Source: an uncultured Muribaculaceae bacterium (GTDB lineage: Bacteria > Bacillota_I > Bacilli_A > RF39 > UBA660). Taken from it: a DNA stretch of 41,681 bases. Position numbers and translations under genes: made by a program. The DNA lies in the NCBI GenBank assembly GCA_964438315.1, contig CAYTKH010000002.1, forward strand, positions 1 through 41,681, written 5' to 3'. Shown one piece after another: positions 15,816-25,802 of the stretch; position 1 is the stretch's first letter; each line of letters begins with the position of its first letter. A model generated the notes under the pieces. That model had not been told where the DNA came from. It did not search any database and was given only the letters and a program-made list of their open reading frames with translations.

Positions 15816-15844
15816 TTGACATTTAGGAAGTAAGGTGTTATTAT
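15816..15844 (+). promoter_or_regulatory. Consensus-like sigma-A promoter of the SipW/TasA-like operon
   Basis: TTGACA (15816-15821), a 17-nt spacer, then TATTAT (15839-15844). The -10 element abuts the tracked ATG at 15845. Confidence 0.6.
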
Positions 15845-15877
15845 ATGCCAAAATTAAGTTTACTTGGGGGTGTGAAT

Positions 15878-18763
15878 GTGGAAAAATATAAATTGATAAA
15901 AAAAAGTTTAACAGGAATCTTATTAGCAGTTTCAGCAACAGTTGCAAGTCCTAATGCTACATTATATACTATGGCAAAAGACTCAATAGAAAAAGATATA
16001 GAAAGTGATTGCTTACATCATGATCATGCAGAATGTGGCGACTGTGATCATGACCATTTAGAAGACGAATTATTGGAAACATTATCTCTTAAAGGTGCAA
16101 GTAATAACCCAACTACTAAAAAGGTAGTTTATAAATCAGATAAGAATGGAACTCATATTAAAACTGTAAAGACTACTGTTACAAAAGATGATGGTAACGA
16201 AATTACTACAAGTACTAAAAAAGAAAAATGTAATATAGTACCACAAATAGAATTTATAGATAACAATAATGGAAAATATACAATAAAGTTCTATAGAGGA
16301 TGTACAAAATGCAACTATAAATTAAAAGTTTATAAGAAAATTGTTGTTGGTGATTATGATGATGATTCAATTCGTGATTACTACGATAAAAAAGATGAAA
16401 ATCAAAAAAAGAAACTTAAAAATGAATTTACAATATTAACAAACAAATGTGAATCTATTGGTAAGAGTAATCATAATAGAAAAATTAAAGTTAAACTTAA
16501 AAATGGTAAAACCTATACAGTTAATATAAAAGAAAAATGTTCATTGATACCAAATATAGAGTTTACAGATAATCTAGATGGTACACATGATATTGAATTT
16601 TATAGGGAATGTGATGATTGTGGTTATACCCCAAAAATATTTAGAAAAACTGGTGTTTGTAAATATGATGAATATGAACATTGTGAATATTGTGATAGCA
16701 TTAAAGACAATGATAAAGAAGTTGAATTAAAGGAAAAGAATAACTTTCAGATAATAGAAAACAGTTATCAATATAATGATGATGGAACTCATACAAGAAC
16801 TATTAAAGTTAAACTTAAAAATGGTAAAATATATTCTATATTGAGTGAGTCTGAATGTGACAAAATCATCAAAGATGAATATAAAAGTAATGGGGATGGA
16901 ACTCATACAGTTTTAACTAGTGAAGATTGTAGAAAATGCCATAATCATGATGAACAAACAAAGGAAGAAAAATGTAGTTATAAAGATGATAAATGCACAA
17001 AATGTAATAGTAAAAATATTGGTGGTGGAAATCACGGTGGCTCAACTAATGATCATGAAGAATGTAATTTTGTTTTAACTGATGTGGAATATGAATCAAC
17101 TAACAACGGTAAACATATTGAAAAAAGGATTTATGAATGTTCTTGTGGTAAAACAAAGATTGAAAGTACAATATTTGATTGTAAATATGATAAATGGATT
17201 AGTATAAGTGATTCTTTAGAAAAAGGTGAGTGTAAATATTGTGAGTATGAGGTAACAAGAAAGCACAGCTTAAATAAAGAAGAACTATCAACATATGATA
17301 AAGCTGATATGCATATTAAAAAAGTAAGAGAGTGGTGTTCAACATGTGATTATGAAAAGTCATCTAGTTACCGTGAAAGTTGCAATTATGTAGATGATAA
17401 ATGTTCTGATTGTGGTCATGTAAAAGAAATAAGTCAAGATCATAATCATAAGTTTGATAAAGTAATAAGTACTAAAACAACATATAATGGAGATGGTACA
17501 CATACAACTACTACCCAATATGGATGTGCTTGTGGAAAAACTAAAACAGAAACTAAAACAGCAAATTGTAACTTTGGAGCTTGGATATCAAATGGAGCAG
17601 TAGGAGAAAAATGTACATGTCTGGTATGTAAAGGTGAAAAGACAAGAAAGCACAAACTTAATAAAACTGTCACTTCTACATATATAGGTAATGATAAACA
17701 TAATACTAAAACTACTGAATCATGTGCGACATGTGATTATACAAATTCGACTGAAAAAGAAGAAAACTGTAATTATGTAGATAATAAATGTTCTGGTTGT
17801 AAACATGAAAAGGATATAAATAAAGATCATGATCATAAGTTTGATAAAGTAATAAGTACTAAAACAATATATAATGGAGATGGTACACATACAACTACTA
17901 CCAAATATGGATGTACAATATGTGAAGGAACTAAAACAGAAACTAAAACAGCAAATTGTAACTTTGGAGCCTGGGTATCAAATGGAATAGATGGAGAAAA
18001 ATGTATATGTCCAGTATGTAAAGGTGAAAAGACAAGAAAACATAAACTTAATACTAGTACATCATATACAAGTTTAGGTAACGGAAAGCATAAAATAATA
18101 ACTACCGAATCGTGTTTAAATTGTGATTATACAAATTCAACTGAAAAAGAAGAAGATTGTAGTTATGGTGCTTGGGTATCGAATGGAGCAACTGGTGAAA
18201 GATGTACATGTCCAAAATGTAAAGACGAAAAGACAAGAAATCATTCTTTAAATATAGAACGTACTGCTTGGGTTTATGTTAGTGAAGATATTCATAAAAG
18301 AACTGTAAATGAAGAATGTACAACATGTGATTATACAAATTCTTATGATGAAACATCAAGTTGTAAATATGGTAATGAATATACACTTTCAGATGGGTTG
18401 ACTGTAGTTGCAGATTGTCCTGATTGTGGGCATCAAGATGTCCGCCATACACATGATTTACAGTATAGTGAAGAATCTGTTGCAAACAATCCAAATATAT
18501 GCTATAATAGCATCACCAGTTGTAAAAGTTGTGAGTATAAAGTAACAACACCTATTCCTCATAGTTTTGCTGACAATGGTTTTGAAGACGAAGGTGAAAA
18601 ACAACAGGAATGTTCTAAGTGTGGAGCTACTAAATGGGTTCCTATAACCACTACAAAAGATGCACTACTAGGATTGAAGTATATGCTATTGGGTGTAGTT
18701 GATTATACATGCGTCAAAGATTGCTTACGCGAAGACGATAGAAAAGTATTCAGTAAAAAATAG
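15878..18763 (+). CDS. Secreted Cys/His-rich repeat protein (~960 aa, about 65 Cys), function unknown
   Basis: GTG at 15878 (or 15872) lies 6 nt after GGGGGT. Signal peptide KKSLTGILLAVSATVASPNA. His/Cys cluster CLHHDHAECGDCDHDH. There are more than 15 iterations of a module [ND]G-x-H-x(5-8)-C-x(1-2)-C...C-x-[YF], for example NGDGTHTTTTQYGCACGKTKTETKTANCNFGAW and GEKCTCLVCKGEKTRKHKLN. No LPXTG motif and no C-terminal TM segment. Confidence 0.75.
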   Translation: MEKYKLIKKSLTGILLAVSATVASPNATLYTMAKDSIEKDIESDCLHHDHAECGDCDHDHLEDELLETLSLKGASNNPTTKKVVYKSDKNGTHIKTVKTTVTKDDGNEITTSTKKEKCNIVPQIEFIDNNNGKYTIKFYRGCTKCNYKLKVYKKIVVGDYDDDSIRDYYDKKDENQKKKLKNEFTILTNKCESIGKSNHNRKIKVKLKNGKTYTVNIKEKCSLIPNIEFTDNLDGTHDIEFYRECDDCGYTPKIFRKTGVCKYDEYEHCEYCDSIKDNDKEVELKEKNNFQIIENSYQYNDDGTHTRTIKVKLKNGKIYSILSESECDKIIKDEYKSNGDGTHTVLTSEDCRKCHNHDEQTKEEKCSYKDDKCTKCNSKNIGGGNHGGSTNDHEECNFVLTDVEYESTNNGKHIEKRIYECSCGKTKIESTIFDCKYDKWISISDSLEKGECKYCEYEVTRKHSLNKEELSTYDKADMHIKKVREWCSTCDYEKSSSYRESCNYVDDKCSDCGHVKEISQDHNHKFDKVISTKTTYNGDGTHTTTTQYGCACGKTKTETKTANCNFGAWISNGAVGEKCTCLVCKGEKTRKHKLNKTVTSTYIGNDKHNTKTTESCATCDYTNSTEKEENCNYVDNKCSGCKHEKDINKDHDHKFDKVISTKTIYNGDGTHTTTTKYGCTICEGTKTETKTANCNFGAWVSNGIDGEKCICPVCKGEKTRKHKLNTSTSYTSLGNGKHKIITTESCLNCDYTNSTEKEEDCSYGAWVSNGATGERCTCPKCKDEKTRNHSLNIERTAWVYVSEDIHKRTVNEECTTCDYTNSYDETSSCKYGNEYTLSDGLTVVADCPDCGHQDVRHTHDLQYSEESVANNPNICYNSITSCKSCEYKVTTPIPHSFADNGFEDEGEKQQECSKCGATKWVPITTTKDALLGLKYMLLGVVDYTCVKDCLREDDRKVFSKK
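17336..18250 (+). repeat. In-frame tandem duplication, period ~387-390 nt (about 2.4 copies), inside the Cys-rich gene
   Basis: 17438-17660 and 17825-18047 are nearly identical. For example, aagtttgataaagtaataagtactaaaaca...ggagatggtacacatacaactactacc has one mismatch, and actaaaacagaaactaaaacagcaaattgtaactttggagc is identical. A third, partial copy starts at about 18113. Confidence 0.85.
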
Positions 18764-25769: not shown

Positions 25770-25775
25770 CTATTA

Positions 25776-25802
25776 AAGGATATCGAAAGATATTCTTTTT
25801 TT
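25776..25802 (+). terminator. Rho-independent terminator ending the seven-gene operon
   Basis: AAGGATATC-gaaa-GATATTCTT (one G:U pair) followed by tttttt. Confidence 0.65.

Follow-up and report, generated by a model that had tools for sequence, protein, structure and literature searches.

What would a bacterium assemble from an operon with two signal peptidases of the SipW type, a set of secreted proteins with matching signals and no sortase? The question is raised by a 41,681-nucleotide (nt) stretch of DNA from an uncultured Muribaculaceae bacterium (GTDB lineage Bacilli_A; RF39; UBA660), contig CAYTKH010000002.1 of assembly GCA_964438315.1, referred to here at its whole length as the window. 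Seven tightly packed open reading frames (ORFs) on the plus strand, named g1 to g7 in their order, span positions 15845-25769. The original prediction, made from the letters alone, read them as a much-expanded version of the sipW-TasA/BsaA theme. Synteny and the relationships among the subunits support this view, and the refutation checks set out with it did not overturn it, although the link to TasA itself is weak. We consider it somewhat probable that the product is a heteropolymeric fibre of the SipW-dependent TasA/BsaA kind, built without sortase and anchored to the cell, which in functional terms would be a pilus.

Two signal peptidases in a conserved cassette

The second and fifth genes, g2 (SipW-A, 18769-19512, 247 amino acids (aa), with a charged C-terminal tail) and g5 (SipW-B, 23013-23570, 185 aa), encode signal peptidases I of the archaeal/endoplasmic reticulum (ER) type, with 92.2 and 73.9 bits against the TIGR02228 cut-off of 51.85. 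Neither reaches the model of the Bacillus subtilis SipW equivalog, NF046067 (99.4 and 73.8 bits, cut-off 190 bits); by these scores they are of the same enzyme type as SipW, not SipW orthologs in NCBI's sense. The two are 31% identical. In both, a catalytic Ser (SM motif) and His (H-R motif) replace the Ser-Lys dyad, accompanied by GDN. The motifs SGSME, THRI and TKGDNN, originally ascribed to both paralogs, are all present in g2; THRI and TKGDNN also occur in g5, but its first motif is TGSME. Ser65 and His104 are each kept in 80 of 81 g2 homologs and the GDN motif in 73, while Ser52 and His90 are invariant among the 68 homologs of g5 and the Asp of GDN is found in 66. Judged from these residues, both peptidases are catalytically intact.

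A pattern scan covering one genome per species found 105 loci that encode a relative of g3, of which 80 were kept; synteny was counted with the window proteins as queries on these and five other loci, 85 in all. The g2 gene lies directly upstream of the g3 homolog in 78 loci, and downstream follow g4 (64 loci), g5 (67) and g6 (58), in constant order and strand. More than 50 loci continue after g6 with an ORF of 350-1200 aa whose N-terminus reads PxT[YH]SK[YF]..ALVY..LY.LY. This is the g7 family, too divergent to be detected by a single sequence. Directly upstream of g2, most loci with enough flank carry a 400-1100-aa ORF with 3-6% Cys and many CxxC pairs. Start codons in the related loci were inferred, and 19 of 20 starts so assigned to g7 homologs are exact matches to database proteins. 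Because the same order recurs in dozens of species-level genomes, it is beyond chance, and the expectation that these genes are kept together in other genomes is borne out (g2-g3-g4-g5-g6 in fixed order in 58-78 of 85 loci, plus the g7- and g1-type ORFs).

All 80 kept loci are contigs of metagenome-assembled genomes (MAGs) or metagenome bins; those with a named source come from the gut of mouse, rabbit, ruminant or human. The submitters' own, unverified labels include Bacilli, Tenericutes, Erysipelotrichaceae, Clostridia and Oscillospiraceae. A shorter form in Clostridia consists of SipW-A, one to three g3 paralogs, a 260-320-aa g4-type protein, SipW-B and a 160-180-aa g6-type protein. All homologs in the databases are unnamed or "hypothetical", and the literature searched holds no equivalent cassette and no characterised homologous operon. 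In this respect the statement that no system of this composition had been described holds; the broader concept, TasA/BsaA operons that combine several paralogs with signal peptidases, is already on record (PMC11580942).

The number of g3 genes varies among the relatives. Two of the closest to the window have two tandem major-subunit copies within an otherwise standard cassette (L006, 1096-2600; L009, 1578-3120). Orphan major-subunit genes (214-223 aa) occur in loci L019, L021, L026 and L052, with the g3 homolog at about 10001 or at 8934 and neither a peptidase nor a g4 gene in the flanks retrieved. In at least three of these MAGs (L019, L021, L052) the full cassette is present on another contig, e.g., CAOKAG010000016 as against CAOKAG010000008. 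The orphan copies may be alternative shaft variants.

The subunit module and the putative donor strand

The candidate major subunit, g3 (19611-20282, 223 aa), combines a Sec signal ending in GTYA/KY (the slash marks the predicted cleavage site) with a putative donor strand, ...ARVAKW, and a beta-sandwich core. A corresponding signal, of the general form T-Y-[AS]/[KY]-[YF], is found in g6 (VTYS/KY, followed by ARVSKF) and in g7 (GVTYA/YF, of SipW type). The three signal ends GTYAKY, VTYSKY and GVTYAYF, and the strand-like, highly conserved ARV[AS]K[WF] segment that follows in g3 and g6, can be read directly in the sequence, as had been claimed. At the predicted -1 position g3 has Ala, whereas all 57 g6 homologs and most g7 homologs have Ser.

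Searches of Pfam, NCBIfam and PDB sequences found no relative of g3, and its family has no Pfam or NCBIfam model. A word-index search returned 56 homologs, all unnamed. An exhaustive profile search gave 5869 clusters at 50% identity, 4068 of them with E<=1e-10, paralogous modules being counted in. Conservation peaks where a donor strand would lie: 13 of the 28 invariant or nearly invariant columns fall within residues 21-44, and SVSGTYAKY....D.ARVAKW is the best-conserved stretch. The remaining conserved columns comprise F64, APGT.G, E101, W.W, D..DT.LGN and a final ..A.Q strand. In a subset of the BsaA family an Asn-Glu-Lys triad forms an intermolecular isopeptide lock; in g3, the conserved residues include K28, K43, E101 and D194. 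In the AlphaFold2 (AF2) model of g3, residues 5-39 are disordered and the core is modelled with a predicted local distance difference test (pLDDT) score of 82-95. The putative donor-strand segment is likewise disordered in the g7 monomer model.

The minor subunit, g6 (23574-24170, 198 aa), aligns with the g3 family over its full length (hhalign 96%, E 4.4e-9, 165 columns) and is by this comparison a divergent g3 paralog, as expected of a further subunit-type substrate. The same module recurs at the C-terminus of g4, where the last ~190 aa (residues ~685-876) match the g3 family with 94.2% (E 1.2e-7, 162 columns). Here the motifs PG..G.Y, W.W and D..DT.IGN are kept and the ARVAKW segment is absent. 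One beta-sandwich module is thus common to g3, g6 and the g4 C-terminus. Direct hhalign comparisons of g7 with g6 or g4, of g6 with g4, and of g1 with g4 or g7 detect no relation.

The signals that control expression single out g3. It has the operon's only near-perfect Shine-Dalgarno sequence, AAAGGAGGTGA, and is followed by a 23-bp stem-loop (plus strand, 20306-20355). The sequence 20283-20355 folds with -30.5 kcal/mol (z -9.15), and the 3' arm of the stem extends to the g4 start codon, taking in the weak ribosome-binding site of g4. Family-wide, the 80 nt after the g3 stop codon fold with a median minimum free energy of -24.7 kcal/mol, and 82% reach -15 kcal/mol or less; the same threshold is reached by 66% of the folds after g2 and by ~5% of those after g4, g5 and g6. 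The 223-aa subunit had been described as bracketed by stem-loops; in the window this applies to the downstream one, but the upstream stem-loop falls short of significance (z -1.23). In the pap and fim operons, a strong hairpin downstream of the major-subunit gene acts on stoichiometry. Hairpin and Shine-Dalgarno sequence together fit a major subunit that would be made in excess.

Could g3, g6 and g7 instead be surface or secreted proteins that need SipW-type export but do not polymerise, with the conserved segment acting as a sorting or retention signal? This would agree with the negative sequence links to TasA and with a weak fold match (see below). Against it, the segment is located downstream of the predicted cleavage site and the monomer models show it as disordered, the same module exists both with the strand (g3, g6) and without it (g4), and filament operons typically make one small subunit in hairpin-controlled excess. 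We regard non-polymerising proteins as quite unlikely.

The two ends of the predicted fibre

Two proteins of the cassette have only one half of the strand-and-module pair, and the polarity of the proposed fibre follows from them. The candidate base, g4 (20356-22998, 880 aa), is a predicted lipoprotein with a lipobox-like N-terminus (…LVTSC), a long stalk and the g3-like C-terminal module. Among its homologs the N-terminus is nearly invariant: a (K/R)-rich part, then an I/L-rich part, then L[IL]TSC(SC)TS.FFGKIG, and a lipobox-like sequence is found in 58 of 63. The subunit-like module at the end of this "Ig/cadherin-like adhesin" was correctly recognised in the original prediction; the immunoglobulin (Ig)/cadherin label is less secure, as in g4 itself it relies on a sub-threshold Big_2 match (18.7 bits, below 22.8) and Pfam Cadherin-like domains are carried by its longer homologs. 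Within the stalk, residues 266-293 (window positions 21151-21234) form an Asn/Pro/Gly-rich run of pentapeptides, SPGENNPGGNNPGENNPGENNPGEDNPG, which probably acts as a flexible linker joining the N-terminal Ig-like part to the remainder of the stalk.

In a short relative from locus L060 (3935-4774, 279 aa), a membrane segment at the N-terminus is combined with a g3-like module that has no donor strand, and the C-terminus carries a canonical LPQTG sorting signal. Sortase thus appears to serve some Clostridial versions of the system for anchoring only. Since this short protein amounts to the module plus an LPQTG anchor, the anchoring role seems to be kept while the chemistry changes.

The candidate tip or cap, g7 (24183-25769, 528 aa), has the strand-type signal and no detectable g3-like module. 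An AF2 model, built with 19 homologs obtained by exact look-up (all of them unnamed or "hypothetical protein"), reaches a pLDDT of 85.8 and consists of a signal helix, a disordered region (~26-50), an Ig-like sandwich (52-169), an alpha/beta domain (185-420) and a C-terminal domain (430-530). Fold relatives in the PDB are confined to the sandwich and are Gram-positive adhesin or pilin domains (Sgo0707, AgI/II, ACE19/CNA, FimA, LrpA, EbpB and SpaD); a Foldseek comparison with viral structures returned generic sandwich matches only. There are no Pfam or PDB sequence relatives of g7, and the word-index homolog search recovered g7 itself only.

Relation to TasA, BsaA and other filaments

TasA and BsaA polymerise by N-terminal donor-strand exchange after processing by SipW (PMC9674648; PMC11580942). 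The present cassette resembles them in logic: the TasA family signal consensus, GGGTWA/AF, ends much like the three window signals, and the peptidase genes are adjacent to those of the candidate substrates. In Clostridium perfringens, the sipW-bsaA-bsaB-bsaC operon encodes SipW, a TasA-like subunit that polymerises, a paralog that does not, and a secreted protein of ~70 kDa, and the oligomers have been proposed to be held at the membrane (PMC7395162; PMC11580942). Both operons place a dedicated SipW gene before a small subunit, a paralog and a large secreted protein, and the second half of the window operon (SipW, small subunit, ~60-kDa protein) mirrors sipW-bsaA/B-bsaC. In contrast to bsa, however, there are two peptidases rather than one, an acceptor-only module fused to a lipoprotein stalk and a Cys/His-rich first gene, the last protein lacks a vWA domain, and no window protein reaches the BsaA model. 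With B. subtilis tapA-sipW-tasA and B. cereus CapP-TasA-CalY the cassette shares a SipW-type peptidase and a subunit signal ending in G-T-x-A-x-[FY]. It differs from both in the absence of a sequence relation to Peptidase_M73 and of a homolog of TapA or CapP, in gene content and order, and in its predicted membrane anchoring. TapA is a minor protein that supplies a complementing strand (PMC10151520), and CapP exerts chaperone-like control (PMC13082335).

The results that bear on the fibre proposed here point both ways, and those on its link to TasA are mostly weak or negative. The best PDB match of the g3 model is the TasA fibre (Foldseek, 8aur_A), and it is a weak one (E 0.011, probability 0.84, template modelling (TM) score 0.30, root-mean-square deviation 11.7); donor-strand pilin domains follow (FimH, PapG and, among the weaker matches, TLP-1a, 9ikj). 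An hhalign comparison of the g3 family with a 40-sequence TasA/CalY (Peptidase_M73) profile is negative at 1.4%, and the other profiles compared give at most 12%. Against TasA alone or the 40-sequence profile, only the last strand (…A.Q) of g3 is aligned, with a probability of 1-2%, and a forced global alignment gave nothing. PF12389 (Peptidase_M73) has no match in g3, g6, g7 or 53+27 family members. No protein of the window reaches any TasA, BsaA or SipW-substrate model, and searches of Pfam, NCBIfam and PDB sequences with g3, g6, g7 and g1 yielded weak noise only. The nearest approach in the NCBIfam scans is a Clostridial g6-like paralog (L058, 8868-9344) that scores 27.3 bits (E 2.7e-6) with the BsaA family model TIGR04090, below its cut-off of 60 bits and in a distant paralog; a second Clostridial g6-type paralog gives E 4.6e-3. 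Apart from these two sub-threshold matches, which suggest remote kinship only, no model of a SipW signal or SipW substrate was matched in the scans. The insertion of strands, the polarity of the fibre and the assignment of tip and base are, moreover, logical deductions only, and the lipoprotein status of g4 is a prediction from its lipobox. The link to TasA/BsaA is therefore best described as real in logic and weak by measurement; the subunits are not assigned to the Peptidase_M73 or BsaA family, but they are treated as working like them.

The first gene, g1, encodes a secreted protein (plus strand, 15878-18763) with repeated units of the type CxxC...E...CxxCG......H and, in total, 65 Cys, 36 His and ~23 CxxC/CxC pairs. 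Pfam matches are weak only ("collagen-flanked surface repeat" (CFSR) and zinc-ribbon models), and there is no PDB relative. Rich in Cys and His, g1 likely binds many zinc ions, and it would be a conserved accessory, perhaps a scaffold or an assembly factor in the manner of TapA or CapP. At their C-termini, the otherwise divergent g1-type proteins frequently share a loosely conserved basic motif, …[VL][LY][TS]L[VR][RK]K… (e.g., L025, 757-2535; L035, 5943-9047; L063, 6503-7708). A lipobox-like motif near the N-terminus occurs in 13 of 36 g1-type proteins and is absent from g1 of the window.

The main alternative is that the product is a released biofilm-matrix fibre like TasA/BsaA, without a cell-anchored pilus or a defined tip and base, with g4 and g7 as matrix adhesins in their own right, in the manner of BsaC. 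Matrix fibres are indeed what the closest characterised systems form (PMC9674648; PMC7395162; PMC11580942), the second half of the operon has the layout of sipW-bsaA/B-bsaC, and the TasA fibre is the top fold match of g3. Against this stands the fusion of an acceptor-only module to a membrane anchor, with the lipobox recurring in 58 of 63 g4 homologs, and in the short relative to an LPQTG wall anchor. The constancy of this fusion argues for attachment to the cell and against release. Because g7 shares the N-terminal strand-type signal, it is likely to be part of the polymer, which speaks against a role as a matrix adhesin. A free matrix fibre is, on balance, unlikely.

The anchored heteropolymer favoured here also has counterparts outside the TasA family. 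The layout deduced for it, with an adhesin-type Ig-like tip, an abundant shaft subunit and a basal anchor, is that of sortase-assembled Gram-positive pili, and the g7 sandwich resembles adhesin or pilin domains (SpaD, FimA, LrpA, EbpB, Sgo0707); one short g4 relative even ends in LPQTG. Unlike in sortase pili, the subunits are predicted to be joined by strand insertion and not by sortase transpeptidation, and the window has neither a sortase gene nor LPXTG: scans for LPXT[GASND] in the seven proteins and for the TLxTC sortase signature in the real window ORFs were negative, as the original prediction had stated.

With the chaperone-usher pili (Fim/Pap) the cassette would share polymerisation by an N-terminal donor strand, a hairpin after the major-subunit gene and an end subunit that has the pilin module but lacks the donor strand (FimH, PapG). 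Unlike Fim/Pap, the cassette has neither a chaperone nor an usher and is found in Gram-positive or wall-less hosts, and the strand-less subunit is predicted to be the membrane anchor instead of the tip. Chaperone-free donor-strand complementation of Ig/jelly-roll subunits, together with archaeal-type signal peptidases, is known from archaeal TasA-like filaments (AbpA bundling pili, cannulae and TLP; PMC9245690; bioRxiv 10.1101/2024.12.30.630787). The archaeal-type peptidases, the proposed donor-strand assembly and the TLP-1a match recall these filaments, whereas the bacterial hosts, the seven-gene cassette, the two peptidases and the lack of a detected sequence relation set the system apart.

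Two further filament types were considered and rejected. Type IV pilins (class III signals) do not fit, as the N-termini have the n-h-c layout of ordinary Sec signals and their conserved motif comes behind the hydrophobic stretch; the cassette has no prepilin peptidase gene, and matches to Pilin_N and ComP are stray, sub-threshold and limited to a few family members. The Pam pili of the Candidate Phyla Radiation (bioRxiv 10.64898/2026.03.03.709456) are unrelated, being specific to that group and dependent on chaperone-usher-like factors.

A model for assembly

In the proposed mechanism, Sec export would come first, after which each peptidase would cut the substrates encoded next to it: SipW-A would process g3 (Ala at -1) and SipW-B would process g6 and g7 (Ser at -1). 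The -1 residue classes match the gene neighbourhoods g2-g3 and g5-g6-g7. This points to a separate peptidase for each class of substrate, and to an ancient duplication of a module made up of peptidase, subunit and large protein; the sipW-bsaA-bsaB-bsaC operon of C. perfringens looks like one module of this kind. Cleavage would free the N-terminal strand, which could then insert into the incomplete sandwich of another subunit by donor-strand exchange, as in TasA/BsaA. Strand-type N-termini are predicted in g3, g6 and g7, and acceptor modules in g3, g6 and g4. Since g7 has the strand without a g3-like module, it can sit at one end only; since g4 has the module without the strand, it can sit only at the other. 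From the outside in, the fibre would consist of g7 as the distal tip, g6 as an adaptor, many copies of g3 as the shaft, and g4. The last of these would accept the final strand, end the fibre and, by way of its lipid anchor and long Ig/cadherin-like stalk, hold it at the membrane. The hairpin after g3 and the strong ribosome-binding site before it would keep the shaft subunit in excess over the accessory proteins.

Transcription unit and genomic context

Except for the two larger gaps that flank g3, the genes of the operon are separated by junctions of 4-15 nt, as tight as had been described, with the ORFs at the positions given. The best plus-strand match to a promoter of the sigma-70 type (TTGACA-17-TATTAT, TG-extended, 11/12) lies at 15816-15844. 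It had been called the one consensus promoter; its rank stands, but this AT-rich region (26% GC) holds many promoter-like sites (118 observed vs. ~100 expected), so that uniqueness cannot be claimed. As the -10 box touches the first ATG (15845, where the g1 ORF opens), translation of g1 probably starts at the GTG at 15878, behind GGGGGTG. This gives 961 aa instead of the 972 aa of the full ORF. Similarly, the g7 ORF opens at 24174 (531 aa) and its start is probably the TTG at 24183, behind TAGGAGGTGA, which gives the 528-aa form found in the protein collection. Both sizes agree with those first reported. The terminator scan detected none on the plus strand inside the operon, and a hairpin followed by a U-run at 25776-25802, resembling an intrinsic terminator, closes it (fold of 25770-25830: -15.4 kcal/mol, z -4.07). 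The earlier statement that there is no clean terminator before this point is therefore upheld. Rfam and tRNA scans of the window have no match within the operon.

The promoter also bears on a role in spore appendages or another spore-surface structure, which had been put forward as an alternative. TasA was first described as spore-associated, and PDB entry 5of1 still names it "Spore coat-associated protein N". However, the promoter match is of the vegetative sigma-70/sigma-A type, and the cassette is common in MAGs that their submitters label, without verification, as Tenericutes or Mycoplasma sp., lineages not known to sporulate. There is no Ena/DUF3992-type match (Pfam) in the seven proteins or their family members, and a membrane lipoprotein anchor fits the surface of a vegetative cell. 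A spore structure is accordingly very improbable.

The operon is flanked by unrelated genes: a cell-wall cluster (Ddl, VanY, acyltransferase-3, alanine racemase) upstream, and a glucosaminidase and a P-type ATPase downstream. An island acquired by horizontal transfer is not supported, as the GC content of the operon (23-32%) resembles that of its flanks. The upstream cluster comprises four co-oriented plus-strand genes (11913-15780) for a D-Ala-D-Ala ligase family protein, a VanY-type D,D-carboxypeptidase, an acyltransferase-3 membrane protein and an alanine racemase, the last two overlapping by 4 nt. The arrangement is reminiscent of D-Ala-D-Ser clusters of the vanC/E/G type with a split VanT; no adjoining two-component genes were seen. 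Between the ligase gene and a DUF6568 gene lie ~1.5 kb (10405-11912; 22-23% GC) without an ORF of at least 60 aa on either strand, in which no Rfam family, tRNA or notable repeat was found. A short hairpin (15782-15800, TTGCGA…TCGCAA), flagged as terminator-like on the minus strand only, separates the stop codon of the alanine racemase gene from the operon promoter and may mark the boundary between two transcription units.

Implications for uncultured gut lineages

The cassette is best read as a widespread and well-defined elaboration of known SipW-dependent fibres, and in itself it introduces no new principle. A bolder claim joins all of its parts: the cassettes of uncultured gut Bacilli, "Tenericutes" and Clostridia would represent an unrecognised class of pili, in which a tip-adaptor-shaft-base heteropolymer forms without sortase, chaperone, usher or ATPase, two substrate-specific SipW-type peptidases license the donor-strand insertions, an acceptor-only lipoprotein both terminates and tethers the fibre, and a multi-zinc Cys/His-rich protein acts as assembly or scaffold factor. 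Taken jointly, these propositions are put forward tentatively, and we think it doubtful that all of them hold.

If the fibre is real, it would constitute a fourth organised route to adhesive fibres on cells of the Gram-positive type, besides sortase pili, type IV pili and the loose matrix fibres of the TasA type. It would show a clear division of labour among tip, shaft, anchor and two activating peptidases that can be tested gene by gene, and it would be a suitable system in which to ask what fibre assembly requires a second signal peptidase for. The donor-strand modules, possibly self-locking, may also be of use in protein engineering. For the organisms themselves, a large family without models is now apparent in gut lineages of mouse, rabbit and ruminants that are known almost only from metagenomes, and the cassette could be a main adhesion or aggregation device of these poorly understood commensals.

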